From the sequence record OQ411014.1: a stretch of DNA of 64,000 nt; one strand, written 5' to 3'. The translations under genes and the position numbers were made by a program. This document shows, piece by piece, positions 1 to 64,000 of this stretch; positions within the stretch are counted from its first letter, which is position 1; every line of letters starts with the position of its first letter. Source of the DNA: Escherichia phage EJP2. The notes beneath the pieces are model-generated. The model was not told the DNA's origin. It saw nothing but the letters and a program-made list of their open reading frames with translations, and did no database searches.

Positions 1-57
1 GCACAGTACTGAAAAAGGCGTATAATGTTTTACATCGAGAGGGGGAATACTTCTCCC
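1..57 (+). promoter_or_regulatory. early promoter (5'-truncated by window; -10 TATAAT 21-26) plus leader hairpin 41-57
   Basis: Same cassette as 13 later copies; stem GGGGGAA/TTCTCCC with one G-U pair. Confidence 0.5.
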
Positions 58-78
58 TGGTACATTAAGGAATAAAAA

Positions 79-225
79 ATGAAAGCATCAAAAAAACGTA
101 ATACCAAGAAATCATCTTCAACGTTCGCAGGTGTATTCCCTTTGCGTTTTGTGGATGAAGTAGTTTCCTACCCGCCGGGTCTTACTCCTGAGATTGTAGA
201 AAGTTTGCGTAAATCTCAAAAATAG
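79..225 (+). CDS. small basic early protein (48 aa)
   Basis: ATG 79 after RBS AAGGAA; TAG 223-225; not in ORF track (<60 aa); read directly. Confidence 0.45.
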   Translation: MKASKKRNTKKSSSTFAGVFPLRFVDEVVSYPPGLTPEIVESLRKSQK

Positions 226-228
226 TAC

Positions 229-288
229 TTGCATAGTACTGAAAAAAGCGTATACTGTTTTACATAGGGGGAGAAACAACTTCCCCCA
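229..288 (+). promoter_or_regulatory. early promoter + leader hairpin
   Basis: -35 TTGCAT 229-234, 16-nt spacer, -10 TATACT 251-256; hairpin GGGGGAG..CTTCCCCC ~266-288. Confidence 0.6.
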
Positions 289-309
289 CTAATTAAGAGA
301 GAAATAAAA

Positions 310-603
310 ATGGCTAAGTATTGCAGAGAGTGCGGCGGTTTGTGTGTAGTTGATGTTTTCGGTATTTCTAACCACATTTACGAAAACGGCGAAATCCATT
401 ACGTGTTAGACGGTGATCATGTAGCTATTCCTGAGCATGAAGAAGTGTTGACAAATGAGGAAGTTTATGATTTTTGTTATGATTATTACACTGATCACGG
501 AGAGTACCCTATGGAGTGCGAATTGTCAAACGGTTATGTACTTTCTTTCGATGAAATCATGAAAGAACTAACCGAAGACCAAAAGAAAGAAATCGAAAAA
601 TAG
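310..603 (+). CDS. hypothetical early protein, Cys-containing (97 aa)
   Basis: ORF track; RBS AAGAGAGA upstream; promoter cassette upstream. Confidence 0.65.
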   Translation: MAKYCRECGGLCVVDVFGISNHIYENGEIHYVLDGDHVAIPEHEEVLTNEEVYDFCYDYYTDHGEYPMECELSNGYVLSFDEIMKELTEDQKKEIEK

Positions 604-606
604 TAC

Positions 607-669
607 TTGCATAGTACTGAAAAAAGCGTATACTGTTTTACATAGGGCGGGGGAATAGTTCTCCCGCCT
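607..669 (+). promoter_or_regulatory. early promoter + leader hairpin
   Basis: -35 TTGCAT 607-612, -10 TATACT 629-634; hairpin GGCGGGGGAA..TTCTCCCGCC. Confidence 0.6.
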
Positions 670-689
670 GGTTAAGAGGAAGTAAAAAA

Positions 690-947
690 ATGGAACAACA
701 TACTCAATATCGTTTTAATGAATACGCGTTCTCTTATGTTGAAGATCATAAAGAACTGCCTGTTAATACTCCTACCCGTGGTAAAGTATATCGCGGTTAT
801 TCCTGGAATCATAGCAAAGATGGTTACACTCATCAAGTAACCGCAATGTACATAGGGGATGGCAACTGGATCAATCCTGATAATCCTGAGTCAATCCAGG
901 ACGTGGAAGCAATGCAATGGTGCGATTATATTGAATGCGTACACTAA
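690..947 (+). CDS. hypothetical early protein (85 aa)
   Basis: ORF track; RBS AAGAGGAAG; promoter cassette upstream. Confidence 0.65.
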   Translation: MEQHTQYRFNEYAFSYVEDHKELPVNTPTRGKVYRGYSWNHSKDGYTHQVTAMYIGDGNWINPDNPESIQDVEAMQWCDYIECVH

Positions 948-956
948 AAAATTAGT

Positions 957-1017
957 TTGACAGTACTGAATAATAGCGTATAATGTTTTACATAGAGAGC
1001 GGGAATAGTTCCCGCCT
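957..1017 (+). promoter_or_regulatory. early promoter + leader hairpin
   Basis: -35 TTGACA 957-962, -10 TATAAT 979-984; hairpin GAGCGGGAA..TTCCCGCCTC. Confidence 0.6.
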
Positions 1018-1037
1018 CATATTAAGGAATTAAAAAA

Positions 1038-1295
1038 ATGAAAGTACAAATTAATGCAACCTCCTGGGTATTACGTCGTGATTCCGAACTGGTACAAGAT
1101 ACTCCTACTACCCGCCGCTTTTTCGATGATCATGGTGTTGTGTATGAGCAAAATAAAGATCAATTAGAATATCATGAATCTATGGCAGTGGTTGATATTC
1201 CTTGCGAGACTGTACAGGATATTCAACAGTACTGCAAGAAGTACAACGCAAAAATTGAAATCCAAAATGAAACGGCATTGATTAGTTTTTTCTAA
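1038..1295 (+). CDS. hypothetical early protein (85 aa)
   Basis: ORF track; RBS TAAGGAAT; promoter upstream. Confidence 0.65.
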   Translation: MKVQINATSWVLRRDSELVQDTPTTRRFFDDHGVVYEQNKDQLEYHESMAVVDIPCETVQDIQQYCKKYNAKIEIQNETALISFF

Positions 1296-1305
1296 TAAAA
1301 AGTAC

Positions 1306-1367: not shown

Positions 1368-1386
1368 ATATTAAGGAATTAAAATC

Positions 1387-1774: not shown

Positions 1775-1918
1775 TTCTCGTAGTACTGAATTATAGATAC
1801 AATCCCGCACCCTATGGGTTAGAGACTTTCTCGTCTTGATGTAGTAATTATACAGTACTGTAATACTATGTCAAGCGTTTAAAGTACATTTATTTTAAAA
1901 AGTATTTGTAGAAAGTAC

Positions 1919-1946
1919 TTGCACAGTACTGATAAAAGCGTATAAT
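1919..1946 (+). promoter_or_regulatory. early promoter
   Basis: -35 TTGCAC 1919-1924, -10 TATAAT 1941-1946; unusually long (~85 nt) leader before ATG 2050. Confidence 0.55.
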
Positions 1947-3373: not shown

Positions 3374-3661
3374 ATGAAAGCTCAAGCCAAATACTTTGAA
3401 AACGTTTTTGATGGTCGTGATGCAGAATGTACCCGCCTGATCGCTGGTGGACTGGTTAAAGGTGCGGTAGTACTGGCAACGGACTTAAACAAAGTAAACA
3501 AGAATAATCCATTCCGTGAATTGTGTAAAGAGATGGAAACGATCACAGTACTGGAATCTCCTTTCAACGATAAGCGTACTGGTATTCCGTCAATGGTCGT
3601 GTACCATAAAGAAACTAATCAACAACGTTTGGTTAGTGCCAGGAACTGGATTGCAATGTAA
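3374..3661 (+). CDS. hypothetical early protein (95 aa)
   Basis: ORF track; RBS TAAGGAAT. Confidence 0.65.
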   Translation: MKAQAKYFENVFDGRDAECTRLIAGGLVKGAVVLATDLNKVNKNNPFRELCKEMETITVLESPFNDKRTGIPSMVVYHKETNQQRLVSARNWIAM

Positions 3662-4858: not shown

Positions 4859-4879
4859 TAAAAAACTTTCGCAGTACTG

Positions 4880-4907
4880 TTGACAACCTCTCCAGTACTG
4901 CTATAAT
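4880..4907 (+). promoter_or_regulatory. sigma70-like promoter
   Basis: -35 TTGACA 4880-4885, 16-nt spacer, -10 TATAAT 4902-4907. Confidence 0.55.
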
Positions 4908-6284: not shown

Positions 6285-6512
6285 ATGACTACTCTTAACG
6301 CACTTCAAATCAGTACTGCCGCTAAAACTCTGGGCGAAATCATGCAAGCTCAATATGTTGTTACTCGTTTTAGTACTAAAGAATGCATTATGATGGTTTC
6401 TAAAGATAGCACCGCGAAACTGGTAATCGAGAATGGTATTGCGAAAGTATATTCTACGCGTGACAATACTGTGCAAAATACTGTTCAAGTACTTGTTGAC
6501 ATCGAAGCATAA
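6285..6512 (+). CDS. hypothetical early protein (75 aa)
   Basis: ORF track; promoter cassette upstream. Confidence 0.6.
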   Translation: MTTLNALQISTAAKTLGEIMQAQYVVTRFSTKECIMMVSKDSTAKLVIENGIAKVYSTRDNTVQNTVQVLVDIEA

Positions 6513-6560
6513 CAGTACTATAATCTCTTTTATCAACTACACGGAATAGGAAACATCATC

Positions 6561-7154
6561 ATGCGTTTTTACAATAAATTTTTACGTTCTCTGGATGGCC
6601 TGACTAATGACCAAATGATCCAGGCGTGCAAAGATGCAGGCTTAGAGATGGTAGGGCGTGGTTCTTCGCGTGTAGTGTATGCTATCAATGACAAGCTCGT
6701 TATTAAGATCGCATTAAACAGTGTAGGCATTACTCAGAACAAAAATGAAACAAAGATCCATTTTTGTATTAAAAACGAATTCATCGGCCTGTCAAAGTAC
6801 TTTGCACGTGTTTACCCTAACCTGGCTGACCGCAAAGATATTACATTAGTAATGGAACGAGTAGAAACCAAGTTTAAAGGCCGTATTAAGTATTCTACCG
6901 CGTTAACTGTCGTTCGCTTTTCTCCTGCCAGGGCGAAAGTATGTGATATTCATAAGGCCGCTTTAAAGCACTTACAGGCGGTTAGTACTCTGGACGAGTA
7001 TATGAATACTTGCAACGCTACCGACCTGCACGCAAAGAATATAGGCATTAACGACAAAGGACAAGTAAAGATCCTCGATTATGGTTTTAGTCCTGTACTG
7101 CGTAACAAGTATTTTCACGGTCGCATAAAAAATAAAAAAGAAGTACTTGCATAG
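6561..7154 (+). CDS. putative protein kinase-like protein (197 aa)
   Basis: Gly-rich loop GRGSSRVVY, VIKI lysine strand, catalytic-loop-like DLHAKNIGIN and DFG-like KILDYGF; by eye only. Confidence 0.5.
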   Translation: MRFYNKFLRSLDGLTNDQMIQACKDAGLEMVGRGSSRVVYAINDKLVIKIALNSVGITQNKNETKIHFCIKNEFIGLSKYFARVYPNLADRKDITLVMERVETKFKGRIKYSTALTVVRFSPARAKVCDIHKAALKHLQAVSTLDEYMNTCNATDLHAKNIGINDKGQVKILDYGFSPVLRNKYFHGRIKNKKEVLA

Positions 7155-7210
7155 TACTGAGATTCGCGTATAATGTTTTATATCGAGAGGGGGAATACTT
7201 CTCCCTCAGT
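7147..7210 (+). promoter_or_regulatory. early promoter + leader hairpin
   Basis: -35 TTGCAT 7147-7152, -10 TATAAT 7169-7174; hairpin GAGGGGGAATACTTCTCCCTC. Confidence 0.6.
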
Positions 7211-7925: not shown

Positions 7926-7930
7926 AGTAC

Positions 7931-7995
7931 TTGCATAGTACTGAAAAAAGCGTATACTGTTTTACATAGAGCGGGGGAATAGTTCTCCCGCATAG
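7931..7995 (+). promoter_or_regulatory. early promoter + leader hairpin
   Basis: -35 TTGCAT 7931-7936, -10 TATACT 7953-7958; hairpin GCGGGGGAA..TTCTCCCGC. Confidence 0.6.
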
Positions 7996-8344: not shown

Positions 8345-8351
8345 AAAGTAC

Positions 8352-8415
8352 TTGCATAGTACTGCGATTCAGGTATAATGTTTTACATAGAGCGGGGGAA
8401 TGGTTCTCCCGCCTA
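8352..8415 (+). promoter_or_regulatory. early promoter + leader hairpin
   Basis: -35 TTGCAT 8352-8357, -10 TATAAT 8374-8379; hairpin GCGGGGGAA..TTCTCCCGCC. Confidence 0.6.
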
Positions 8416-9298: not shown

Positions 9299-9326
9299 TT
9301 GACTTTTTATCTGAATCGGATATAAT
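9299..9326 (+). promoter_or_regulatory. sigma70-like promoter heading the paralog array
   Basis: -35 TTGACT 9299-9304, 16-nt spacer, -10 TATAAT 9321-9326. Confidence 0.55.
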
Positions 9327-9372
9327 CTGTTCTATATTATATTTCACTTGTATTTTATCTCATGGAGTCCCT

Positions 9373-9858
9373 ATGAATAATGATTTGTCGTATATAGAAA
9401 CCTTAAACTTAGCCAATGACTTACTCTTAATTCTTAGGGCATTTGATGCGGGTAAGCTGGATGGTTATAAGGATATCACTAAGCAGCTTATAGGTGATAC
9501 TACAACGGAATACTTTCTTGCAGGTGAACGTGTATGTTACGTCACTAATAAAGCATCCAATATATGGTCAAACGTAAGTCTCACTTCTGGTCGGATTCGA
9601 TACAATCAATTATATCCTCACTACCCTATAAAGAACAACGGCGAGATTACTAAGTGCGTCCCTGGGGATAAAATCTTTGAAGTGTCCGAAGAACAATTTT
9701 TCTATAACACACTCACACTCGATACTAGCTTACCAACGAGTGCACTTATCTTTGGAGTACTGTCTGGACACAAGTTTGAACACAACGCTGTGGGATTATA
9801 CTTCGACCTAGAGTATGTGGATATACTGGTTCTGTATGCTAAAGAGGTGTTGGCATGA
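9373..9858 (+). CDS. FQ-motif paralog family protein
   Basis: Motif VSEEQFFYNTL; RBS GGAG. Confidence 0.7.
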   Translation: MNNDLSYIETLNLANDLLLILRAFDAGKLDGYKDITKQLIGDTTTEYFLAGERVCYVTNKASNIWSNVSLTSGRIRYNQLYPHYPIKNNGEITKCVPGDKIFEVSEEQFFYNTLTLDTSLPTSALIFGVLSGHKFEHNAVGLYFDLEYVDILVLYAKEVLA

Positions 9859-10358
9859 GACTACGAGTAGAAGATTACTCTTATGATGAAGTTCTAAAGT
9901 TAGCCCACGATATACGTTTGATGATGAGTGCCTTTGATACTGGTCGGCTAGATGGTTATAAAGATATTCGCAGAGAAGACGTTGATGAAAAGACTGTGGA
10001 GTACTATATTGGGAACGATAGGGTCGCACATCTAAACAGATATGAATCAACTCTATGGAGTATGCTTATGCAGAAACATGGAACTATCAAACATAACTCT
10101 TTCGCTGCACACACTATGTTTGTTATCGACGCTGTGGTTCATGAACGTAAGCTAGATGATCCCATGTTTACTGTTTCGGAAGAACAATTCTTTTACAACA
10201 CTTTACAATATCCCAACAACACTGTTCCCGCTAGAGGTATTATTTTTGGTGTACTGAATGAACATACGTTTGATTACAATGAAATTACATTGAAATTCAA
10301 ATTACACCTAGATAAGATGTTAGCTTACTCACAAGAGGTTATGCATAATGCAATGTAA
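9855..10358 (+). CDS. FQ-motif paralog family protein
   Basis: Motif TVSEEQFFYNTL; ATGA overlap with upstream stop. Confidence 0.7.
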   Translation: MRLRVEDYSYDEVLKLAHDIRLMMSAFDTGRLDGYKDIRREDVDEKTVEYYIGNDRVAHLNRYESTLWSMLMQKHGTIKHNSFAAHTMFVIDAVVHERKLDDPMFTVSEEQFFYNTLQYPNNTVPARGIIFGVLNEHTFDYNEITLKFKLHLDKMLAYSQEVMHNAM

Positions 10359-10680
10359 CGTTATTATAAACACGTATTGTGAATCATATACACATCTTGG
10401 TGTTATGCGTTTTTCTGAACCAATGACGAATTATCTTATTCGCTATAACCACCGCAAAAATGAATGGGAACTTCGATACTATAATCCAAAAACATTGGAT
10501 GTGGAACAGATTGATGATACTATTGCTGTACTGTTGGACATGACTGAAGAAGAACTGTTCCAACATTCGTGCATTACTGATTTCGATGTCTACATGGTTC
10601 ACGCTGGTATGCAAGAGTTGAAACATAACACTCCCACAAGCTATAATTCCGTAATAACTAAGAAAACATTGGAGTACTAA
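10348..10680 (+). CDS. FQ-motif paralog family protein (short, divergent)
   Basis: Motif TEEELFQHS; 11-nt overlap ATGCAATGTAA. Confidence 0.55.
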   Translation: MQCNVIINTYCESYTHLGVMRFSEPMTNYLIRYNHRKNEWELRYYNPKTLDVEQIDDTIAVLLDMTEEELFQHSCITDFDVYMVHAGMQELKHNTPTSYNSVITKKTLEY

Positions 10681-11180
10681 TGAACACATTTGAAGAAGAT
10701 TTACAATTTGCTAACAAGGTGTTACGAATCCGAAATGCTATGATTACTGGTGAATTAAAAACTCTTCCAGGAGTGCATGAGCAGACCAATCCATTTCTTA
10801 ATGAACTGGATTTTTTATTCTTTGGAAATGTTGATTTAAGATCAGCACCGCTTGGATGTTTGACTTTTGAAAAAGGCGTTTCACGTTCTATAATTTCTCA
10901 AAGACATATATCATATAACACCAACGATGATAAGATTGCAGTTTTCAATGATGACCTTGAGAAATACGTTGACGTTGATATTGTTGATTACGATGAAAGC
11001 CTTTACTTTCAACACAGCCTGTTGTATACTCCTTGTGACTTACGTTACTTGGTTACTGCTTCTGTACTGAAGGCAAATGAAATTCCAGATAGACCAAACA
11101 TCCATCGATTCAAGTTTCAGTTGGTGCACATTCCAACAATTCATAAACTCTTGAGGTATAGAGACTATGGCATCATTTGA
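10680..11180 (+). CDS. FQ-motif paralog family protein
   Basis: Motif DESLYFQHSLLY; TAATG overlap. Confidence 0.65.
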   Translation: MNTFEEDLQFANKVLRIRNAMITGELKTLPGVHEQTNPFLNELDFLFFGNVDLRSAPLGCLTFEKGVSRSIISQRHISYNTNDDKIAVFNDDLEKYVDVDIVDYDESLYFQHSLLYTPCDLRYLVTASVLKANEIPDRPNIHRFKFQLVHIPTIHKLLRYRDYGII

Positions 11181-11646
11181 AGAAGATTACGCAGAAGCAA
11201 AAGATATCTGTACTGTTATGAAAGCCTTAGACACCAATCTGTTTGACAACCATAAAGAGATTATGACATTTCATAATGAATTCGAAACGATATATCAATG
11301 TTGGAATACAAGGTTCGCAGCAGTAAGTAAACATACTATTGGATATAAAAATAGCATTGACATTACAGGTAAACTGATTGACTATAGACCACATTCAGAT
11401 TCGTTTCAATATTTCAATTATGAAGATATGAAAGGGTATCTACTAAAAAAACACGACGCTGTATTCACCCCGACTGAAGAACAATATTTTCAAAATTCTA
11501 TTCTGTACGATCCAATCAATGTGAGAAGGTTTCTCATTTACGGAATACTAAATCAAGAAACTTTTGAGAACGAATTTATTCACTTGGACTACAACGTACT
11601 GAATCGTCTTGTACATCTTGCTAACGAGGCTAGAAATGCAACGTAA
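11167..11646 (+). CDS. FQ-motif paralog family protein
   Basis: Motif TEEQYFQNSILYD. Confidence 0.7.
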   Translation: MASFEEDYAEAKDICTVMKALDTNLFDNHKEIMTFHNEFETIYQCWNTRFAAVSKHTIGYKNSIDITGKLIDYRPHSDSFQYFNYEDMKGYLLKKHDAVFTPTEEQYFQNSILYDPINVRRFLIYGILNQETFENEFIHLDYNVLNRLVHLANEARNAT

Positions 11647-12223
11647 TGAATACACTGAATATACTGAATATACCGAAGTAGATGATGCTATTGATGTACC
11701 AGAGTACTGTTATAGTGATGATTTAAAGTACTGCTATGATATACTCAAGATAAAACACAACATGGAAATCCAGAGTCTACTCAAATTAGATGCATTTGAA
11801 CTATCAAGAATACAACAAAAGTCTATACAGTACGTTATGAAAACAGCCTTCTATGAAGAGTCAGGTCATAAGATCGGTATTGGCTCAGTACATAAGAATC
11901 TAAGAGTAGAAATGAGTTCACATCTAAGTATAACTTACTGTGTATTCGATAGTAGAAGTACAGTCTTCTCAGTACGTGACTATAAAGGACGTTATCCTAT
12001 ATCAGATACAGTACTATCAGAAGAACAGTACTTTCAACTTAGTCTTATTCATGATCCTTATCTTCTAAGAGCAATGTTACTTTATTCTGTACTTAAAGCT
12101 AATTCTAATCTAGAATCATCATGTGAGTACTCTCAAATCAATTTAGCTTATAATAGTTCAGTACTGAAATATATTGATACCCTAGATACCCTAGATACTC
12201 TTGGGGCAGAAGAAACATTATAA
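11636..12223 (+). CDS. FQ-motif paralog family protein
   Basis: Motif SEEQYFQLSLIHD; ATG 11636 (11-nt overlap) preferred over listed 11609. Confidence 0.6.
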   Translation: MQRNEYTEYTEYTEVDDAIDVPEYCYSDDLKYCYDILKIKHNMEIQSLLKLDAFELSRIQQKSIQYVMKTAFYEESGHKIGIGSVHKNLRVEMSSHLSITYCVFDSRSTVFSVRDYKGRYPISDTVLSEEQYFQLSLIHDPYLLRAMLLYSVLKANSNLESSCEYSQINLAYNSSVLKYIDTLDTLDTLGAEETL

Positions 12224-12247
12224 TAACATTTATAACAATCATATAAC

Positions 12248-12814
12248 ATGGTGAGAAGTATGGTCATATCTACAGTAGATGCAAACAGATACAAGTTGGA
12301 GTCACTATTATTCGATGAAGTGAGTTACTCAAAGCACAAACGATTTTGTACTGCCATGTGTACAGTACTGAAGGTTATTGCTACAGGAGAGATAGAGAAG
12401 TACAAGGGTATTACTAAGACTAGGCATTTAGGAATGGGGTGTACATACTACTATAACGATTTTAACTTCTGTAGTGTTGATATGTTAACACCAGATGAAG
12501 AGGATTATTCTGTTGTGATGTTAGGTTCATGTAGGGTAGTACTGTTCAATGATTACAAGGATTTAATATCTGTAGATAACGATTATAAAGAGATTATCAT
12601 TCCTAGTACATCTAATTTACTGATACCTACAGAAGAGCAGTACTTCCAGAATTCATTACTCTATGACAGAGCGTATCATCTGTGTAAATTCTTATTATAT
12701 GGATCTATCTTGCAATTGAACTTACAGTACTGTAGTATAGACTTCAGATACAACCAAGTGTTTGAGCTTGAGGAACTAATACTCAAAGGTGATTATAGTG
12801 AACAATATCAATGA
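12248..12814 (+). CDS. FQ-motif paralog family protein
   Basis: Motif TEEQYFQNSLLYD. Confidence 0.7.
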   Translation: MVRSMVISTVDANRYKLESLLFDEVSYSKHKRFCTAMCTVLKVIATGEIEKYKGITKTRHLGMGCTYYYNDFNFCSVDMLTPDEEDYSVVMLGSCRVVLFNDYKDLISVDNDYKEIIIPSTSNLLIPTEEQYFQNSLLYDRAYHLCKFLLYGSILQLNLQYCSIDFRYNQVFELEELILKGDYSEQYQ

Positions 12815-13349
12815 TAATGAATCATATACTGAAGCTACACAATTAGTACAAGATGTGTTATTAGTAGTACAGTATCTTATGAATTCAGAGTTCAAGGATA
12901 GTGCATTGAAACACACTATCAATGAAAGGAGTTTCTCATCAAGAATGACATCATTTGTATTTGATGTGAATAGAGGATTGGGTCGTACTGTTTACGAGAA
13001 GACTGTTGCTACGTTAAGGTCAGCAGTAGGGGGGACCAATGAGTTGAGGATTACTGCTAACGCTATTCAGTACTGTACAAGTTCTAATACTGTATGTGTA
13101 TATAAAGATGAAGATTCAAGATATCAAAAGTACAGTCCTATTGATTTTGATGATTATTCAGAAGAGAGATATTTTCAGACCTTATTGATGTACGATGAAG
13201 TTTATGCTAAGAACATGCTTGTAGCTTCTGCGATACAGAAGTACATTCCAGAGATCATGCGTTCACGTAATTATAAGGAGTTAACACTTACTGTGTTCCT
13301 TGATGATTTGCTTGAATTAGCTAATATTATAAAGGAAACACAACAATGA
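12789..13349 (+). CDS. FQ-motif paralog family protein
   Basis: Motif SEERYFQTLLMYD; GTG start, exact start uncertain. Confidence 0.55.
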   Translation: MIIVNNINDNESYTEATQLVQDVLLVVQYLMNSEFKDSALKHTINERSFSSRMTSFVFDVNRGLGRTVYEKTVATLRSAVGGTNELRITANAIQYCTSSNTVCVYKDEDSRYQKYSPIDFDDYSEERYFQTLLMYDEVYAKNMLVASAIQKYIPEIMRSRNYKELTLTVFLDDLLELANIIKETQQ

Positions 13350-13936
13350 CGTATCGCTCATTAGCAGCTAAAGCCGAGCATGAATTATATCTAATGCAAA
13401 AGATGAAGAATCTCTTATACAAGTACGAAAACAACGAAGACATTTCTTCTTATCATTCAGTACAGCTTAGTAAGCATTTTAGTATTTTATATTTCAAGGA
13501 CGATGTTGGTATTTTGTCATTGTGTCACCTTCCTAGTGGTTCATTTAATACGGACACAACAACGCTTATACAAGTTTATTCACATTACAGTGATATAGAA
13601 AATATTAGCTCACCGAGAATCCTTGAGTCCTATTACAATCAATCATCGAGTAATATGGTCAGGAATGTGTATAATGATTTCTTGCGGTTTAGACCTTCAA
13701 TTGATGATGATGAGTTACGGGTTATCATTCCTACAGTACAGCAAATGGATTTGAGTACAGAAGAGGGGGAGTTTCAGTTCATTACGGCGAACGACGATTC
13801 AGTACTTGACGTTATGAAATATTTGCAGTACATTACAAGGAATAAGTTCGATAGAACATTCACAACGAGCTTTAGTGATTTAGTACCTGAAGCGATTGCA
13901 GCATGGGATGAGTATTATGAGCGATTTCAGTCCTGA
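13346..13936 (+). CDS. FQ-motif paralog family protein
   Basis: Motif LSTEEGEFQF; ATGA overlap. Confidence 0.65.
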   Translation: MTYRSLAAKAEHELYLMQKMKNLLYKYENNEDISSYHSVQLSKHFSILYFKDDVGILSLCHLPSGSFNTDTTTLIQVYSHYSDIENISSPRILESYYNQSSSNMVRNVYNDFLRFRPSIDDDELRVIIPTVQQMDLSTEEGEFQFITANDDSVLDVMKYLQYITRNKFDRTFTTSFSDLVPEAIAAWDEYYERFQS

Positions 13937-13968
13937 GATTATTCAAGCAGCTAAGGATATTGAGAGTT

Positions 13969-14535
13969 ATGAGCGACGATTTAGTACAGAAGATTAGTTC
14001 CACAGTTCATGTATTGAAGTTTATGCATAATTTACAAACACAGCTAATACAGGACAATATCATTCCTGGTATTTTTTCATTAGAATTGAATAAAGAATTC
14101 AAGATAACATATGTAGATTATGATAAGTCATGTACATTGAAATTAATGTACGCACCATCAGTGCATTCTGCGTTTGCTAATCAGCAACTTGATGTTGTTG
14201 TGTTAACAATATCGAAATCAGACACATCCCCAGAGTCATCTTATTCACCGCAGCATTACCTCATTTCGAATAAAGATACACAAAGAATCAAGACCACAGC
14301 ATACAAGAATGCACAGGAATGGATACCAATTATTCCTAAGAGCGAGCTTGATTTGAGTACAGAAGAGGCAGATTTTCAGTACAGGATGATTTACGACGAT
14401 GTAGTACTTGATATGTTGAAATTCGTTCAGGCAGTTCAAGATGAAGTGTACGTAGATTTTTGTACATTTTTATCTCCAGTAATATACAGAGCACATGAGG
14501 CAATTGTACGATATGAAAATAAAATTAGAATTTGA
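13969..14535 (+). CDS. FQ-motif paralog family protein
   Basis: Motif LSTEEADFQY; ATG 13969 preferred over TTG 13960. Confidence 0.6.
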   Translation: MSDDLVQKISSTVHVLKFMHNLQTQLIQDNIIPGIFSLELNKEFKITYVDYDKSCTLKLMYAPSVHSAFANQQLDVVVLTISKSDTSPESSYSPQHYLISNKDTQRIKTTAYKNAQEWIPIIPKSELDLSTEEADFQYRMIYDDVVLDMLKFVQAVQDEVYVDFCTFLSPVIYRAHEAIVRYENKIRI

Positions 14536-15139
14536 ATTCCTTCGTGAATTACAGTACAAGATACAGTGCATTGCTAATTTTCTTGACATGTATTCCGAGC
14601 AGAAAAAGAGTGTCCTAGTAGCTGAACGTCATTTTGATGCACAGCTTTTGTATACCATATACGGGATACAGTTAGTTGCTCATAGTCCTATTCGGTATCG
14701 TTTTCCTGCGGATTATCTAAACCTTGAAGCTAGCGTAAAAGGGACCGAAGACGCAACACGTTATTACCCACATTATAATGATTTTAGATTTCATCCAGAC
14801 ACGACCCATTTTGTAGTACTTGGTGAAATGAATGAACAAAAAACATATAGACCCTCCGAGATTGGAGTACAGCATAAGTTGCCAATTCGAAATATAGATT
14901 TAACACAAATACAAGAAGACGAATTTGATGCATATGCTTTCCAGTACAGCACATTTATGTCAGATGAAGAAGTGGCAATGTACATCCTAACGTGCAGTCT
15001 AGGGTGCAAGAACGGGTTATCCAATGGTATATCATTATGTGTATATAATATTGATAATATGTTGGAACATTTGAATACAGCTAAAGCATACACACAAGTA
15101 GAATATGATGCATACAGATACGGCAGTTACGACAGATAA
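14513..15139 (+). CDS. FQ-motif paralog family protein
   Basis: Motif FDAYAFQYSTF; start 14495 or 14513. Confidence 0.55.
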   Translation: MKIKLEFEFLRELQYKIQCIANFLDMYSEQKKSVLVAERHFDAQLLYTIYGIQLVAHSPIRYRFPADYLNLEASVKGTEDATRYYPHYNDFRFHPDTTHFVVLGEMNEQKTYRPSEIGVQHKLPIRNIDLTQIQEDEFDAYAFQYSTFMSDEEVAMYILTCSLGCKNGLSNGISLCVYNIDNMLEHLNTAKAYTQVEYDAYRYGSYDR

Positions 15140-15866
15140 AGCAAAAGTAATCCAGTACAGTCATGTTCACGCAGTGAAGTTGGCATTTGTATTGGCTGTT
15201 ACGGAGTACATATATCAGTACGGGGATTTTTCGTCAGATAGTGCATATAATGTTACGAAATATGATTATCCAGGAGCCAAAGGTGATGCATTACGATTCA
15301 GGGATGCATTTATCACATACGATTCATTGAATAATAAATCCGTATATGGTTTCAAGGCATTCATTGGAAATGACCTAAATGTCAAGAACAAGATGATAAT
15401 GTTCAAGGCGTACGTTCACAGTCCTGAAGATCCAAATGTACCAATGCGTAGTACAGCATTCAATGCACATCCAGATTGCGATTCAGTCCTGTACACACAG
15501 GATTCGATAGTATACAATTCATTATGTAATGAAATGCAAGTCCAGGGTGAAGAAATCAGTGTTCCAGTACGATTCAGTACGAAAGTTCTTGACGAGGCGA
15601 AATATTTCCAGTACAGTACATGTATGACGGATACACAAATTTACAGTGCATACATCAAGTCCTATCTTGATAAGTACGATTTGTGTAGTTTCACATGCAG
15701 ACACGAAGTACAGGATAAGTTATTTGATGTATATTTCGAGGACAATTTTGAGTTCGAGGATTACCCGTCGAAGGATGCCAGTACTGAGCAGATTGAAATG
15801 TACAATAAAGTCCTAGTGCTTTTAGATGAAGTTATTGCTTTAGGAGTTGACATACACAGGATGTGA
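15105..15866 (+). CDS. FQ-motif paralog family protein
   Basis: Motif EAKYFQYSTCM. Confidence 0.6.
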   Translation: MMHTDTAVTTDKAKVIQYSHVHAVKLAFVLAVTEYIYQYGDFSSDSAYNVTKYDYPGAKGDALRFRDAFITYDSLNNKSVYGFKAFIGNDLNVKNKMIMFKAYVHSPEDPNVPMRSTAFNAHPDCDSVLYTQDSIVYNSLCNEMQVQGEEISVPVRFSTKVLDEAKYFQYSTCMTDTQIYSAYIKSYLDKYDLCSFTCRHEVQDKLFDVYFEDNFEFEDYPSKDASTEQIEMYNKVLVLLDEVIALGVDIHRM

Positions 15867-15913
15867 TGTTATAATGCAAAAATATACCCCACGATATAAA
15901 GAGAGAATATATA

Positions 15914-16654
15914 ATGCTAAACATGCGTTCACGTAAGATTCAAAAGCACGTTCAGGTATTGATTCAGGCCCAGAACATTGCTAACATTTCAGATTTCATG
16001 CACAATACAGTACAGAAGGATGGACCAGAGGCGTTGGCTTCATATTTCGATCACAACCGAAATCAAGATCCAAGTTCATATGTACACACGAACAATGAGT
16101 CCTATTTGGATTGTACCTTTGCGTACAACCCGAATCCATCAGACACGTCAGAAGAGATCAAAGCTGATGGTGTAGAGGACGCAGTACCACAAGGTGTAGT
16201 ACCGATGGGATACACACGAGTAACCATTTTCCGCACACCAGAAGATGCGAAGTACATGCGTGATACGAATTACATTTGCATGGGTGGTAAGTTCAGTAAT
16301 CTTGTATTCAATCCGTACAATACGCAATATGAGTTCATAAATTTTCCGAAGAGCGGTAAGACACAGCAGATTCAAATGAAAGTACCGGATTTTGTTCAGT
16401 ACAGTACAGAGAAGCATTTGAACGAGCAGAGTTGGTTATTCCGTTCAATGAAAATTGATGTGCAGTTGATGATTTCGTATTTGAAGGTAGTGCAATGCAA
16501 GGGTATTGACATTGACCCGAATGATGTACAGTATTTCTTGGATTTATTTGGATTAGAATCTTGTACAGAAGAAGAAGTCCTAGCTAAAGTACAGAAGATT
16601 CGAGACGAATATGTCCCACCATCAGTACCAAAAGATTCCTCGGAATTGCCATAA
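15914..16654 (+). CDS. FQ-motif paralog family protein (divergent)
   Basis: Motif VPDFVQYSTE; RBS AAGAGAG. Confidence 0.6.
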   Translation: MLNMRSRKIQKHVQVLIQAQNIANISDFMHNTVQKDGPEALASYFDHNRNQDPSSYVHTNNESYLDCTFAYNPNPSDTSEEIKADGVEDAVPQGVVPMGYTRVTIFRTPEDAKYMRDTNYICMGGKFSNLVFNPYNTQYEFINFPKSGKTQQIQMKVPDFVQYSTEKHLNEQSWLFRSMKIDVQLMISYLKVVQCKGIDIDPNDVQYFLDLFGLESCTEEEVLAKVQKIRDEYVPPSVPKDSSELP

Positions 16655-16810
16655 TGTAATGTTATAATATAACATATATTGGCTTTTATTATGTAGTCCT
16701 GAGATCGGGGGATAGGGGTCAAAAAATTTTCCGCTCCGCAAAGTATATTAATAAGGTATAATACGCGGGGCGGCGGTGGCGGCGGCGAGATTGCGATTAG
16801 GGTGGATTTT

Positions 16811-36736: not shown

Positions 36737-37476
36737 TTTGAGCATTCATAAAAAAATGTGATATAATTAGTACTACGGATGGTTAGCTATCCGTATTTTA
36801 AATTTGAATGACCAGTACTACATACTGGTACGTTTTAACCCTGATTCACTCGAAAATGTAGAGGACAGTTGAGTACGCATTCAAGTACGTTCAGCAGAAG
36901 AAACCCGTTAGGTGTAGGCATAGTTTGTACCTCCCACGGCAATGTGGCTGATTAAACCATGAAGAGTAATACGATGACTCATGGCTTGCTTATGGCATGA
37001 TAGACATATAAGGATCGCTCCTTACCAAAATGTATAAGGGAATCTTATAAATTTTTGTAGGACTGATTAGAGGCTTACCCTTGATCCGTCCAAAATTTGA
37101 AGATACAGTACAGTACTGTTTATGTGGTAATGTATTGATGCGTGCTAAGACCACGACCGTTGCATAGAAACGCGATAGGAAGAAACAGGGCAACCCGCTT
37201 CCGTTCTTAATAGAAATTCGTAACATAAAATGATGACACATACCAGCGTCAAACTTTGTTCTTCCCTCCCTGTGGGGGGATGAAAATGAATCTACAAAAC
37301 CTCGTCAAATAATAATAAGAAAGTACTAAATCAATTAGAACGAACGCTAGTGAGTGATAATTGATTTAGTAACAGTAACGCTTCGCTAGAAGTGTTACTC
37401 GTTGTTTAAGAATAAAATAACTTAGTGAGTTTTGGTTCTTTTGTTGTTCACTAAGTCCCTATAGAGAGAATATTAG

Positions 37477-37998
37477 ATGCCAGTGAAATATAAATCCCTT
37501 GATGGTGTTGTGAAGTACAAAGATCAAATGACTGAACAGGAATTACAAGAGTTCAGTGGGTACAAAATCGAGGGCAGTGCGGCACGTATTTCATACATTG
37601 AAGAGTACAAAGACGGAGATTTACTAGGGAAAATTATCCTTAGAATGACAAAAGCCCCAATCATATTTCGGGTAGTATACAAGGGATATAATGAAATTCG
37701 GTACAATACTGGAAGTGTTTCATCTAGATATTGCAGTAATGGTGATGTTTTTTGTGGTGAAATGCTGAGATATGATATGAATGGGAAGCTACAGGTTCGG
37801 GACTTTTTGAATCTAGGCAAGAACGTAACTGATGATATTGTTACTGAATTTGGTATCTCTGATATACTACAGCATGAATTTACAGAAGAAGAGTTATTCC
37901 GACTCTATATGAAATACGATTCAGGATTTAGATTCGTATCGGAATATAATAGAACTCCTGAACACTTCGATTCAGTACTGAAGGCGTGTTTGGAATAA
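37477..37998 (+). CDS. FQ-motif-like hypothetical protein (173 aa)
   Basis: Motif TEEELFRLYMKYD; RBS AGAGAGAAT. Confidence 0.6.
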   Translation: MPVKYKSLDGVVKYKDQMTEQELQEFSGYKIEGSAARISYIEEYKDGDLLGKIILRMTKAPIIFRVVYKGYNEIRYNTGSVSSRYCSNGDVFCGEMLRYDMNGKLQVRDFLNLGKNVTDDIVTEFGISDILQHEFTEEELFRLYMKYDSGFRFVSEYNRTPEHFDSVLKACLE

Positions 37999-38013: not shown

Positions 38014-38532
38014 ATGGATGATAAAAAATCAAAGATGGATATACACTTTTCATCTAAAGCTCAAACTTGGAATACTCCAAGAGATTTATGGAATAAAATA
38101 AATGCAGTATGGAAGTTCACTCTAGATGCTGCGTGTTTAGAAAATAGTGCCTTGTGCGAAAAGTACTTCACTCCTGAAGACGATTCATTAGAACAGGACT
38201 GGGGTGATAACATAGTATGGCTTAACCCACCCTATAACGACCTCAAGACTTGGCTATCGAAGGCAGTACAGGAATATAAGAAAGGCTCTACAGTTGTCAT
38301 TCTGGTCCCTTCTAGGACGGATACAAAGGCATTCCAGGACTATGCTTCTAAAGAATGTTCGTGTATTTGTTTTATTAAGGGAAGACTCAAGTTCTTTGAT
38401 CCAGCTAGACCACCTGATGCGAGGGCAGACCCAGCACCATTCCCTAGCTGTTTGATAGTACTGGATGATGATCTTACACAAGAGAAAATCGATTTTCTAA
38501 AAACTCTAGGTCAGGTAATGAAGAATGTCTAA
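38014..38532 (+). CDS. dam: DNA N6-adenine methyltransferase, small phage Dam family
   Basis: Catalytic NPPY in WLNPPYNDL; N-terminal HFSS..WNTP and C-terminal PFPS motifs typical of the ~170-aa phage Dam family. Confidence 0.8.
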   Translation: MDDKKSKMDIHFSSKAQTWNTPRDLWNKINAVWKFTLDAACLENSALCEKYFTPEDDSLEQDWGDNIVWLNPPYNDLKTWLSKAVQEYKKGSTVVILVPSRTDTKAFQDYASKECSCICFIKGRLKFFDPARPPDARADPAPFPSCLIVLDDDLTQEKIDFLKTLGQVMKNV

Positions 38533-46515: not shown

Positions 46516-46545
46516 GCAGTACTGCGATTGTAGTACTGCTTTTTT
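46516..46545 (+). terminator. rho-independent terminator
   Basis: Stem GCAGTACT..AGTACTGC followed by TTTTTT; stem built from the AGTACT palindrome. Confidence 0.6.
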
Positions 46546-51253: not shown

Positions 51254-51263
51254 TTTCAAATAC

Positions 51264-51293
51264 AGTACTGCTATTGTGGCAGTACTTTTTTTG
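51264..51293 (+). terminator. rho-independent terminator
   Basis: Stem AGTACTGC..GCAGTACT followed by T7 tract. Confidence 0.65.
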
Positions 51294-61081: not shown

Positions 61082-61238
61082 ACTATATCCTTTTATAAAA
61101 AACTGGTCATAAAATGACCTACATAATATTTATGTTACTTGTTCATTTTTTGTACAGCTAATGCTAAATAAATTTATATTGACACTGATAAGCAAACATG
61201 CTAGAGTAATCATCTTACACATTCATTGTAGAGGGTAT

Positions 61239-61853
61239 ATGAAAAAAATTCCATTAGAATTGTTACAGATATTTCTTATCTGGTTGCTATGTACTGTTCC
61301 CAGTTCAGCAGAAAGTTTGTCCAGTACTATCTTTAGAGATAAAGAGAATATTGTTCATTTTGGTGCTCCAGTTTCATTCGAGGCATATAGCAAATTACTG
61401 AAAATGTATAAGATAAAACCATTTTCTGAAATTAGACTCACCAGTAATGGTGGAGAATATGATGCTGGTATGAAGATTGCTCACTTAGTTTACACCAATG
61501 ACATATCAGTCTTTGTTCCAAAGTACTGTGCAAGTGCATGTACATTTATATTTTTTGGAGCTAGGGTTGAGCACCGTGACATTGCACCAACGGCAATGTT
61601 GGGATTACATAATGTGTCGTTTGGTATGAACAACTCAACGGGTGAAGACGCGAATAACTCGTCGATAACAGTCAAGGAGGCACTTGATTTTGCACAAGAA
61701 GCAGTTGTAAGATCAGGAATGATGATTTCATTCTATTCTGCGAATGGGATACCAAGTGATGTACTACTTCAAGTATCACAAACATATGGTCAAGGTATCA
61801 TAAATGTGCAACGGGCTGACTTAGTTCGTTGGGGTGCAATACAAGCGAAATAA
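61239..61853 (+). CDS. putative secreted ClpP/S49-like peptidase-fold protein
   Basis: Signal-peptide-like N-terminus MKKIPLELLQIFLIWLLCTVPSSAES; TSNGGEYDAGMKIA and CASACTF loosely resemble ClpP motifs; ATG 61239 with RBS GAGGGT. Confidence 0.45.
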   Translation: MKKIPLELLQIFLIWLLCTVPSSAESLSSTIFRDKENIVHFGAPVSFEAYSKLLKMYKIKPFSEIRLTSNGGEYDAGMKIAHLVYTNDISVFVPKYCASACTFIFFGARVEHRDIAPTAMLGLHNVSFGMNNSTGEDANNSSITVKEALDFAQEAVVRSGMMISFYSANGIPSDVLLQVSQTYGQGIINVQRADLVRWGAIQAK

Positions 61854-61879
61854 AAAAGGAGCCTAAAGGCTCCTTTTTG
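61853..61879. terminator. bidirectional terminator between convergent genes
   Basis: Stem GGAGCC..GGCTCC flanked by A-tract and T-tract. Confidence 0.6.
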
Positions 61880-61919
61880 AATGTTTAATATCAAACCACA
61901 ATAAAAAAGTGGTTAACTT

Positions 61920-62576
61920 TTACGCCCCCAAAATAGTAACATTACATTGTGCAGTAAAATTACCATCAACACTAGTTGCTGTTATAATAGCATTCCCAGC
62001 CAACAAACCAGTGACCAGACCAGAATCAGAAACTGAAGCTACTGTTGGTTCGGAAGATTCCCACAGTACTGATTGGTTTGTAGCATCCTCTGGTGTGAAA
62101 ATTGGCGTGAGTTGGTCAGTTTCACCTGTCTGAATAGAAGATGTTACTTTATTCAATGCAAGACCAGTAACATACACTGAACGATCACGTTGACTTGCAT
62201 AAGAATTAAGATAAAATGATGAACCATCGCCTAGGATGATTTTATTTAAGAATAGTTTTATTGCAAAACCGACCAGTTCATCTTTTTCTGGATCATATAC
62301 CTTAATACAAAATTTACCAGGGTCAAGTTTAGCAGCAAGTTCTTCATCGGTATCACTTAGCAATAACGGTTGTTTGTTCTTATCCAAAGCTGTTATTTGA
62401 AGAAATTCATATAGTGAATCACCAGTTTTGGATTGCAAGTCAAACATGATAGTACTTCTCTGTTTTGATATATTAATAGTAGTTAGTTCTGTACCATCTT
62501 TCAATACGGCAGCGTTGACATTTATACCCGAAATATCGAACGGAAATTGGTCGCGGCGAGCAATTGGTTTACCCAT
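61920..62576 (-). CDS. hypothetical protein with C-terminal bacterial Ig-like (Big_2-like) domain (218 aa)
   Basis: Strong RBS AAGGAGG; C-terminal TGLALN...VLWESSEP..ATSVDGNF pattern typical of Ig-like group 2 domains. Confidence 0.65.
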   Translation of the reverse strand: MGKPIARRDQFPFDISGINVNAAVLKDGTELTTINISKQRSTIMFDLQSKTGDSLYEFLQITALDKNKQPLLLSDTDEELAAKLDPGKFCIKVYDPEKDELVGFAIKLFLNKIILGDGSSFYLNSYASQRDRSVYVTGLALNKVTSSIQTGETDQLTPIFTPEDATNQSVLWESSEPTVASVSDSGLVTGLLAGNAIITATSVDGNFTAQCNVTILGA

Positions 62577-62633
62577 TGTAACCTCCTTATAGTTTACAAT
62601 TTTAAATATTTATCCATAATGTGCTAAAAAAAC

Positions 62634-62663
62634 TTGCACATTCCAAGATAATACTGATATAAT
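62634..62663 (+). promoter_or_regulatory. sigma70-like promoter
   Basis: -35 TTGCAC 62634-62639, 18 nt, -10 TATAAT 62658-62663. Confidence 0.45.
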
Positions 62664-62716
62664 AGACTCATCCAACGCGAAGTTGGTGTAAACAAACTAC
62701 TAAGAGGACTTAGACA

Positions 62717-63790
62717 ATGAAAAACGAAAACGTATATGTATACATCGGACGCTTCCAGCCAGCACATAAAGGCCACGAAGCAGTACTTGAAAATGCAATC
62801 AAAAAAGCTGACCGTGTTGTTATTCTAGTGGGTAGTGCTGAACAAGCTCGTTCCCCTAAGAACCCGTTCACCTTTGAAGAACGCCAAAAAGTACTGGACG
62901 GTATCACAACTCGTCTTGCACAAGATGAATGGGCGAAAGGTCGCCGTGTGATGATCGACATCCTACCTGTACATGACTTCGTATACAACAACCAGAAATG
63001 GCTCATGGAAGTTCAAGAACAAGTTCGTTCCTGCACTAAAAGTGAAAACATTACTCTAACTGGTTGTCGTAAACATGGCGATGATAGTACTTTCTATCTT
63101 GAGTTCTTCCCTCAGTGGAATCAAGATTTCATTACAGAAACTACACAAGAAGATGTTGGTATCAATGCCACTCAACTACGTAACCAATTCTTCAGTACTA
63201 AACAAGTACCTGAACAAAATGTACTTACTCCTGAAACTGTAGAGTTCCTTGAGAAGTTCAGCGTAGAAAAGAAAGATGTACTAGATTACCTAGTGAAAGA
63301 ACATGCTTTTACTACAAAATATAAAGCAGACATGAAGAAACAACTACCATTTGACACAATCCCATTCCTGACTGGTGATAGTCTGATTGTCTGTGCAGGT
63401 CATGTTCTTGTAGGTATTCGTCGCTCTGAACCAGGCAAAGGTCAGTACTGTCTACCTGGTGGGTTCTTCGATGCATGGAAAGATAAAGATCAAGTTGATA
63501 CTGCTTTACGTGAACTCAAAGAAGAAACCAAAATTGATGTACCAATGAATAAACTACGCGGTTCTATTGAACGTGTAGAAGAGTTTGGTGACTTTGACCG
63601 TGACCCACGCTGGCGTGTAATCACTAAGTGCATCTACATCAAACTTGACGGTACTAAACTACCTAAAGTAAAAGGCTCAGATGATCTCAAAGGTTGCTTC
63701 TGGATGCCTATGACTGAAATTGCTAAAAATCGTGCTAACTTCTTTGTTGATCACGTTTCCATCATTGACACGTTCTTAGGAATCCTGTAA
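62717..63790 (+). CDS. natV: bifunctional NMN adenylyltransferase / Nudix hydrolase (NadM-Nudix type)
   Basis: N-terminal HxGH motif in IGRFQPAHKGHEAV; C-terminal Nudix-box-like GGFFDAW..ALRELKEETKI; 357 aa; symbol by analogy with vibriophage KVP40 NatV. Confidence 0.8.
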   Translation: MKNENVYVYIGRFQPAHKGHEAVLENAIKKADRVVILVGSAEQARSPKNPFTFEERQKVLDGITTRLAQDEWAKGRRVMIDILPVHDFVYNNQKWLMEVQEQVRSCTKSENITLTGCRKHGDDSTFYLEFFPQWNQDFITETTQEDVGINATQLRNQFFSTKQVPEQNVLTPETVEFLEKFSVEKKDVLDYLVKEHAFTTKYKADMKKQLPFDTIPFLTGDSLIVCAGHVLVGIRRSEPGKGQYCLPGGFFDAWKDKDQVDTALRELKEETKIDVPMNKLRGSIERVEEFGDFDRDPRWRVITKCIYIKLDGTKLPKVKGSDDLKGCFWMPMTEIAKNRANFFVDHVSIIDTFLGIL

Positions 63791-63791
63791 T

Positions 63792-64000
63792 ATGAATGTA
63801 ATTTCTCTGACTCCAGGTTTGAAAGCAGACTTGGATGCAGTAAAGGAAAGTAAGTACAATAAGATAACTAGCTGTACTGAACTAATCTTGAGTACTGATG
63901 GTTATTCTGAATGTAATCAATTGTTCGTTGATGCACTTCAACACATTGATAAAAAACTGTATCTAACCGATTTTCTTTATCTTATTCAGAGAACGTGGAT
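63792..64000 (+). CDS. hypothetical protein, 3'-truncated by window end
   Basis: ATG 63792 immediately after upstream stop; open to end of window. Confidence 0.45.
   Translation, partial: MNVISLTPGLKADLDAVKESKYNKITSCTELILSTDGYSECNQLFVDALQHIDKKLYLTDFLYLIQRTW

Follow-up and report, generated by a model that had tools for sequence, protein, structure and literature searches.

Hyper-abundance of the palindrome AGTACT in Escherichia phage EJP2 and its RaK2/121Q-like jumbo phage relatives

Abundance, symmetry and conservation of AGTACT

The window analysed here, a stretch of 64,000 nucleotides (sequence record OQ411014.1), comes from Escherichia phage EJP2, a RaK2/121Q-like jumbo myovirus; it shares synteny with Erwinia phage Hallingskeid and Salmonella phage Munch, and the EJP2 early region is ~82% identical to PBECO4/121Q-type Asteriusviruses. 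In most of its 118 open reading frames (ORFs), and at its early promoters and two of its terminators, the palindrome AGTACT recurs. An exact count over the whole window gives 301 copies per 64,000 bases (4.70 per kb), which places AGTACT first among all 4096 hexamers at ~13-fold above chance, and the octamer CAGTACTG (107 copies) first among octamers at ~95-fold above the 1.1 expected under a first-order Markov model (Markov-1). The strong over-representation proposed in a first-pass annotation of this DNA is thus confirmed, beyond the estimate by eye of 2-7 per kb given there.

The expected number of copies is 21.3 from mononucleotide composition, 23.5 under Markov-1 and 65 under Markov-2, and Markov-3 simulations returned 138 +/- 12 with a maximum of 164. 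The Markov-3 figure is inflated, since the model carries the 4-mers of AGTACT itself: once the sites are masked, the Markov-2 and Markov-3 expectations are 35 and 43. The maximal-order Markov expectation (256) was discarded as a null, as it is built from the motif's own 5-mers. Within genes, a synonymous-codon shuffle that preserves every protein and the codon usage of each gene yielded 70.5 +/- 7.3 copies against the 259 observed (z = 26), and codon permutation gave an expectation of 31. Against composition-aware nulls the excess is at least an order of magnitude, a property that AGTACT shares with elements like HIP1 of cyanobacterial chromosomes.

The sites are single and spread over the window. 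All three reading frames are in use on the + strand genes (100/43/98), non-coding DNA is denser in the motif (7.1 per kb) than coding DNA (4.5 per kb), and 101 of the 118 ORFs carry it, with Poisson-like counts per gene (chi2/df 0.91). The occurrence in every frame and in regulatory elements described earlier is therefore borne out, and the two outcomes named there as contrary to the claim, a codon-aware null matching the count and confinement to one gene family, were both looked for and neither was found. A spread over coding and non-coding DNA with no repeat or gene family as carrier is again HIP-like. Spacing between sites is near-exponential (mean 213 bp, coefficient of variation 0.88), and metagene profiles at start and stop codons are flat, indicating no gene-level pattern. 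No periodicity, clustering or helical phasing was found among the 301 sites or, subsequently, among 1,052 sites from 289 kb, in which the exceptions are the pairs 11 bp apart at promoters and slightly more pairs than expected at 20-21 bp; the 18-bp pair spacing of LexA boxes is not enriched. Separately, a trough at 9300-16700 holds ~9 sites in 7.3 kb, against ~32 at the mean density of the window; it covers about a dozen genes in tandem arrays encoding 160-250 amino acids, and this block could be a more recent acquisition or could be evolving faster.

The pressure for AGTACT overrides protein sequence and distorts the proteome. Ser-Thr dipeptides number 169 against 90 expected and the reverse Thr-Ser is not enriched (75), while 108 of the 169 Ser-Thr pairs are spelled AGT-ACT, where 28 would be expected; because the skew is confined to the order that spells the motif, the codon bias is largely caused by the motif. 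Val-Leu dipeptides are similarly in excess (214 against 119 expected; Leu-Val 121), and NAG-TAC-TNN occurs 46 times against 6 expected. Among the peptides listed earlier as frequent products of the motif, Ser-Thr and Val-Leu are thus enriched, but Gln-Tyr-Ser requires correction, as frame 1 of CAGTACTG reads Gln-Tyr-Cys/Trp. It might be supposed that the frequency of AGT, ACT, GTA and TAC as codons makes the whole feature an artefact of codon usage, amino-acid composition or repeats. This is refuted by the shuffles (70 against 259 observed in the codon-preserving one), by the AGT-ACT skew among dipeptides and by the spread over 101/118 genes, and given further that the codon bias is itself largely produced by AGTACT and that non-coding DNA is the denser, the probability of such an artefact is negligible.

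No tRNA gene matching the motif codons was found in the window. Erwinia phage Hallingskeid carries a tRNA-Ser (locus L006, 14574-14664, - strand) with anticodon ACT in the anticodon loop CTACTAA, which would decode exactly AGU, the serine codon swollen by the motif (AGT = 34% of serine codons). An A as first anticodon base is unusual in bacteria.

At positions 1-4 the bases beside AGTACT follow two-fold symmetric preferences (p > 0.08 for asymmetry), despite 92% of genes lying on one strand. Position 1 is informative, with C on the left and G on the right and with G avoided on the left, as are positions 3 and 4, with T on the left and A on the right; position 2 is uninformative. The extended 14-bp dyad consensus is TTnC-AGTACT-GnAA, and 76% of CAGTAC have T as the next base. 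The same pattern is present in all 11 clade lineages, between which the strength of the C/G flank alone varies, being greatest in EJP2 and Hallingskeid. To judge from the sequence, symmetric flanks with a free position 2 would be typical of a dimer on duplex DNA, and self-pairing of RNA is hard to reconcile with them because the unconstrained position 2 would interrupt a longer duplex.

Relatives sampled were Hallingskeid (in its early and its replication/structural regions), Munch, PBECO4, 121Q, RaK2, Serratia phage BF, GAP32, CBB, Xanthomonas phage XaC1 and ten metagenomic contigs. At all ~25 clade loci the ratio of observed to expected AGTACT (O/E) is 6-14, whatever the host genus, with a clade-wide frequency of ~1 per 200-350 bp, and the most over-represented hexamer is AGTACT or the overlapping CAGTAC in every relative but one short contig (L023). 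The hosts concerned are Escherichia, Klebsiella, Salmonella, Erwinia, Serratia, Cronobacter, Pectobacterium and Xanthomonas; XaC1, recorded on the last, has 3.7 copies per kb (O/E 10), and the replication/structural region of Hallingskeid, with its genes on the opposite strand, has 3.4 per kb. Outside the clade the motif is nearly absent: there are 0 copies in 25 kb of Pseudomonas phage Ettore, a PA5oct-like outgroup, 1 in 12 kb of a non-clade contig, and 3 in 50 kb sampled from E. coli K-12 (0.06 per kb), making the EJP2 window ~80 times denser. Given this distribution, the trait belongs, on the sequences compared, to the phage lineage and not to the host, and is old. Ettore, the nearest relative sampled outside the clade, shows the opposite pressure, avoiding AGTACT to the extent that AGT-ACT spells 0/41 of its Ser-Thr pairs and GTA-CTN occurs 3 times against 11 expected.

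In five independent genome pairs of 81-96% identity, 77% of AGTACT sites are conserved (n = 612) as against 48% of hexamers matched in composition (n = 11,245), for an odds ratio of 3.7 (p = 2e-47), and conservation above control motifs is a further HIP-like property. The motif is kept through divergence down to ~60% ligase and 43% methyltransferase identity. When EJP2 is compared with genomes at ~50% protein identity, 26% of sites coincide (baseline 9%), and since density is kept, most sites must have turned over; between PBECO4 and phage G17, gains are about equal to losses (7 vs 5). None of the one-letter neighbours of AGTACT shows, in the window, the depletion that Vsr/Dcm-type repair leaves: all are at or above expectation, the outer-position variants most. 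This neighbour spectrum fits mutation-selection balance rather than a repair drive consuming near-matches.

Promoters, terminators and the methyltransferase gene

The sequence AGTACTTGCATAGTACTG begins at 224, 602, 7142, 7926 and 8347, with a TGCAC variant at 1914, and TATAAT or TATACT lies downstream of each. Together with two further promoter-like sites and two terminators, the AGTACT-bearing regulatory elements are:

224..256, + strand, early sigma70-type promoter: AGTACT over the 5' edge of the -35 (AGTAC-TTGCAT), a second directly 3' of the -35, -10 TATACT
602..634, + strand, early promoter: same two-site arrangement as 224..256
1914..1946, + strand, early promoter: two-site arrangement, TTGCAC variant
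4873..4907, + strand, promoter-like site: AGTACTG-TTGACA ... CAGTACTGC-TATAAT, AGTACT flanking the -35 and abutting the -10
6488..6524, + strand, promoter-like site: AGTACT-TG-TTGACA ... CAGTAC-TATAAT, the second AGTACT overlapping the -10
7142..7174, + strand, early promoter: two-site arrangement
7926..7958, + strand, early promoter: two-site arrangement
8347..8379, + strand, early promoter: two-site arrangement
46516..46545, + strand, intrinsic terminator: arms GCAGTACTGC and GTAGTACTGC, two AGTACT copies 14 bp apart, then a T-run; -16.0 kcal/mol, z -4.3
51262..51293, + strand, intrinsic terminator: two AGTACT copies 17 bp apart, then a T-run; -16.4 kcal/mol, z -4.6

The early promoters of EJP2 and PBECO4 contain three slots for AGTACT, over the 5' edge of the -35 (AAAAAGTAC-TTGCA), directly 3' of the -35 and abutting the -10. 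These slots lie at -40..-35, -29..-24 and -19..-14, with centres 11 and 10 bp apart, or one helical turn, and they hold AGTACT in 21/23 promoter-like sites of the PBECO4 early region and in 14 of the window. The flanking of the -35 by AGTACT noted in the first-pass annotation accordingly stands at all six early promoters (224, 602, 1914, 7142, 7926 and 8347), as does its claim that the motif forms the stems of the terminators at 46516 and 51264, for which the predicted hairpins are those listed above.

Two other features of the early region were observed. Between 21 and 8440 a repeated early-gene cassette consists of TATAAT/TATACT, GTTTTACAT, usually a GC-rich 5' hairpin (GGGGGAA...TTCCCCC or GCGGGGGAA...TCCCGC), TTAAGGA and ATG, its 14 -10 elements lying at 21, 251, 629, 979, 1328, 1941, 2874, 3320, 3692, 4689, 6225, 7169, 7953 and 8374; GGGGGA is among the most over-represented hexamers outside the AGTACT family. 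In addition, the E. coli recombination signal Chi (GCTGGTGG) is enriched and oriented: it occurs on the + strand at 3443, 5294, 6111, 7553 and 43652 (5 copies where 0.33 would be expected), the early region holding four of these, and on the - strand at 39576. The PBECO4 early region (L007) has 7 Chi copies against 0.11 expected, and in phage G17 the Chi-rich region sits at the start of the deposited record. If the start of the record is the physical end of the genome, the orientation of Chi would stop RecBCD entering there.

The Dam-family methyltransferase placed at 38014 by the first-pass annotation is likewise upheld by the domain search:

38014..38532, + strand, predicted orphan PF05869 (Dam-family) N6-adenine DNA methyltransferase (Pfam E = 1.4e-28)

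Its product is 100% identical to an EJP2 protein, and orthologues occur in every clade genus at 43-75% identity (72 records), none of them from Pseudomonas phages. Matches outside the clade span residues 19-126 of 172 only, and the C-terminal quarter may, from these alignments, be specific to the clade. The enzyme is the sole sequence-specific DNA enzyme found in the window and, on sequence grounds, the only candidate reader or modifier of AGTACT seen. Clues to its specificity were sought and gave no solved relative, no informative names in 6,699 homologues and nothing useful in papers citing PF05869. A C5 methyltransferase is also present in the clade, and CpG methylation has been reported for RaK2 (PMC3622015); AGTACT contains no CpG.

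The gene just upstream of the methyltransferase gene (37477-37995) is conserved and apparently encodes a MORN-like repeat protein, to judge by eye from the alignment, with no evident nuclease motifs. Always two genes upstream of the methyltransferase lies a non-coding stretch of ~430 nt (~36860-37290, + strand); a promoter of its own lies near 36757, and CCCTCCCTGTGGGGGG at ~37266 resembles a terminator. The stretch is the most conserved DNA of the window between 30,000 and 38,000 (77-88% identity across the genera matched) and can be aligned in six genera, including RaK2, BF and XaC1. Of the 64 pairs in its predicted consensus fold, which includes a long-range helix, 16 show compensatory changes; relaxing the Rfam threshold to E <= 1 still gave no match, and neither a tRNA nor a tmRNA was found in it. 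The stretch is a candidate for an undescribed structured RNA of the clade.

The abundance of AGTACT stands against a background of palindrome avoidance. Absent from the window are 26/64 palindromic hexamers (summed expectation 165), among them AAGCTT, CTGCAG, GCATGC, GTCGAC and GGTACC, and GCGC, for which base composition predicts 73 copies, has none. It is equally absent from every clade locus sampled (> 500 kb; L001-L004, L006-L008, L011-L027), whereas 23 copies occur in 25 kb of Ettore and 342 in 50 kb of E. coli K-12. Two other palindromes are under-represented, GATC (106 against a trinucleotide-based expectation of 255) and TTAA (169 against 328), and G-rich words resembling Shine-Dalgarno sequences are depleted window-wide (GGAGG 6 against 35; GAGGAG, GGAGGT and TGGAGG all 0). 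AGTACT is the Type II restriction site of ScaI and Eco255I, the latter from E. coli. If the density of the window holds genome-wide, the total is roughly 1,600 copies, and that many ScaI-type sites in a palindrome-avoiding genome would be a liability unless protected.

Reading of the palindrome

Given the dyad symmetry, the free position within the footprint, the occupation of promoter slots outside transcribed DNA and a core and flanks that stay the same across the clade, it is tentatively suggested that AGTACT is a recognition site on double-stranded DNA, kept by selection, for a dyad-symmetric protein encoded by the phage; this is the preferred reading, held at somewhat under an even chance. 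A reader encoded by the phage is favoured because the trait spans many host genera. Selection would keep AGTACT dense throughout the RaK2/121Q-like clade, and a two-fold symmetric phage protein would read it, preferring TTnC-AGTACT-GnAA. As its density in the phage is ~80 times that of the E. coli K-12 sample, the motif could mark phage DNA as 'self' for that protein. Since the slots interleave with the contacts of RNA polymerase, occupancy or modification of AGTACT at the early promoters might also switch early transcription. The Dam-family methyltransferase (38014-38532) could write N6-methyladenine as AGT(m6A)CT, which would explain the tolerance of ~1,600 ScaI/Eco255I-type sites. Put together, these steps would make AGTACT a clade-wide sequence 'barcode', a docking or methylation site that lets a phage protein tell phage from host DNA without modified bases and so time early transcription, and perhaps also replication, repair or protection; this fuller version is possible but doubtful.

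Several observations weigh against a phage-encoded reader of this kind. No DNA-binding domain, including helix-turn-helix, was found in any of the 118 ORFs of the window with Pfam and PHROGs, and so no reader protein was identified. The characterised PF05869 members known to us are GATC-specific or non-specific, the link between methyltransferase and motif is based on a single phylogenetic node, and C/G flank strength shows no relation to how similar the methyltransferases are: in Munch the enzyme is closest (75%), yet the C/G flanks are weak. Beyond the pairs at 11 bp and 20-21 bp the sites are neither clustered nor phased, so that nothing points to cooperative arrays. A general motif pressure filling free positions beside fixed bases could have produced the promoter slots incidentally, and repair that restores sites would also give conservation above controls.

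The last of these points leads to an alternative in which AGTACT has no function at all: biased repair or gene conversion, for example methylation-dependent very-short-patch repair as proposed for HIP1, would make and restore the motif as a neutral drive. A methyltransferase conserved in the clade does exist, the motif occurs in every frame and in non-coding DNA and overrides amino-acid sequence, gains and losses are about equal in close relatives (7 vs 5), and the top one-letter partners, AGTATT and AATACT (27/77), are those expected from C-to-T deamination at the only C:G pair of the site. However, these same two words stand at 1.1-1.5 times expectation, where a drive should thin near-matches, and the domain scan found no Vsr-like or mismatch-repair nuclease domain in the window. 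Furthermore, 13-fold for the hexamer and ~95-fold for the octamer seem far above what Vsr/Dcm produces in E. coli, and conserved weaker preferences at flank positions 3-4 are unexpected from short-patch repair. Neutral drive is accordingly considered unlikely. A similarly low probability is given to a reading of the motif in single strands, either as a template site for a T4-type (gp61-like) primase, where a palindrome serves both strands, or as a messenger RNA element acting through pairing of copies, RNase or stability, or terminator blocks. The clade has a T4-like replisome, in which the primase is distantly homologous to gp61 (PMC3622015). A priming signal required throughout the genome would be compatible with the Poisson spacing and with metagene profiles that are flat, copy pairs do form predicted terminator hairpins, and pairs 20-25 nt apart are in small excess. 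Nevertheless, a full palindrome would be needless in a single strand, and yet 76% of CAGTAC precede T and the flanks are dyad-symmetric with a free position 2; moreover, AGTACT occupies fixed slots upstream of transcription starts. The primase version is further weakened by the fact that T4 primase sites are trinucleotides, and we know of no T4-type primase specific for a hexamer.

A host protein, such as a nucleoid-associated protein or a repressor, might instead bind AGTACT and be recruited or titrated by the phage. The overlap of the motif with promoter elements of the host RNA polymerase and the predominance of Enterobacterales among the hosts would be in keeping with this, as would the resemblance of CAGTA/TACTG to what we take to be the half-sites of LexA and TrpR. 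It is improbable, given that core and flanks are unchanged in XaC1 (Xanthomonas) and in seven enterobacterial genera, that pair spacings peak at 11 and 20-21 bp and not at the 18 bp of the LexA box, and that the E. coli K-12 sample is itself poor in AGTACT. Nor is there much to recommend, at an equally small probability, a physical property of the DNA, in which three flexible pyrimidine-purine steps (CA, TA and TG) would make a 350-kb genome easier to bend, package or eject, or would assist topoisomerase II. Even spacing without positional preference and A/T-rich symmetric flanks fit such a role, and the clade encodes, by annotation, a T4-type topoisomerase II, a type of enzyme that the 4-bp stagger A^GTAC^T would fit; however, many similarly flexible sequences are unenriched (TGTACA and CATATG occur about as often as expected), AGTACT is missing from PA5oct-like Ettore, the other jumbo phage sampled, and the exact identity of the hexamer is conserved clade-wide.

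The first-pass annotation had inferred a DNA-level function, and flank symmetry, untranscribed promoter slots, conservation and palindrome avoidance uphold that part; the partners it proposed can be ranked, none being settled. Among its protein-binding options, one encoded by the phage is favoured over one from the host, as the trait follows the clade across hosts. For a modification target, the methyltransferase conserved clade-wide is a candidate enzyme. A Chi-like recombination signal is conceivable, but the motif is unoriented, and the true Chi is a separate word, itself enriched. A packaging signal is unlikely for ~1,600 evenly scattered copies, a total obtained by extrapolation.

A literature search found no report of AGTACT enrichment for EJP2, RaK2, CBB, Sharanji or jumbo phages generally, no iterated palindromes in phages and no ScaI digestion or long-read methylome data; the feature, which is real, strong and clade-wide, and unusual for a phage and for a palindrome alike, appears to be undescribed. 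Phages are expected to shed restriction-type palindromes, and this clade sheds others strongly yet has made AGTACT its commonest hexamer. This implies an unrecognised DNA-level system in widely isolated phages that are therapeutic candidates (EJP2, PBECO4, 121Q, RaK2, GAP32 and CBB), and suggests a route of self-DNA marking for phages without modified bases or a phage nucleus. In practical terms, the k-mer signature of high AGTACT and zero GCGC identifies the clade in metagenomes, ScaI-type restriction or AGTACT-binding tools would be either extremely potent against the clade or fully blocked, depending on methylation, and synthetic recoding of its genomes must respect AGTACT.

Comparison with known systems

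The nearest comparison by sequence is with ScaI/Eco255I, whose Type II recognition site is the same 6-bp palindrome, against which an orphan methyltransferase of the phage could protect. However, restriction targets are normally depleted in phages, whereas AGTACT is the commonest hexamer, and no restriction enzyme gene was seen in the window. M.ScaI is an N4-cytosine methyltransferase, unlike the Dam-family adenine enzyme of the window.

Chi, DNA uptake sequences (USS/DUS) and KOPS resemble AGTACT in being short over-represented words found within and between genes, and they are kept because a protein reads them. These signals are asymmetric and biased in orientation, in contrast to AGTACT and its flanks, which are symmetric, and the E. 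coli Chi is a different word. A second group comprises phage proteins that bind their own genome widely, repress early promoters and distinguish phage from host DNA: TF1 of SPO1, which prefers hydroxymethyluracil DNA, p6 of phi29, which uses bendability, and the repressors of the cluster A mycobacteriophage stoperators, of which there are ~30 asymmetric, oriented, intergenic sites per genome. A binder of AGTACT is only putative, and AGTACT is unlike the sites of this group in being a simple palindrome, with ~1,600 copies by extrapolation, mostly intragenic; 259/301 copies in the window lie inside genes, where a stoperator array would have tens of oriented, mainly intergenic sites.

The closest likeness in behaviour is to HIP1 (GCGATCGC), which is said by Elhai (2015) to correlate with a methyltransferase of the same genome that targets the motif or its inner core. 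An orphan DNA methyltransferase is likewise present in the genome that carries AGTACT, its cognate link being a candidate only. The nested cores are alike (GTAC within AGTACT within CAGTACTG; GATC within CGATCG within GCGATCGC), with one-letter deviations mostly at outer positions. Both are hyper-abundant short palindromes, HIP1 at 15-300 fold (Xu, Lawrence and Durand 2018, PMC5861425) and AGTACT at 13-fold, or ~95-fold for the octamer, and both are found in every frame of coding DNA as well as outside it, are conserved above controls and show no gene-level pattern (PMC5861425). The density of AGTACT, 4.7 per kb, is several times the ~1 per kb estimated for HIP1, for which a density periodicity of 10-90 kb has been reported; AGTACT shows no short-range periodicity in its 64-kb window. 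It also differs in that its carrier is a virus, in its AT-rich and different sequence and in its fixed slots at early promoters. Because it is carried by Escherichia phage EJP2 rather than by a cyanobacterial chromosome, and is neither GCGATCGC nor a GC-rich alternative, AGTACT is HIP-like in behaviour and not a member of HIP1. It offers a tractable viral model for hyper-abundant palindromes, whose cyanobacterial role has been open for decades, and if the barcode interpretation were true it would be the first element of HIP type from a virus, with a reader that experiments could reveal, and could illuminate the function of HIP1.

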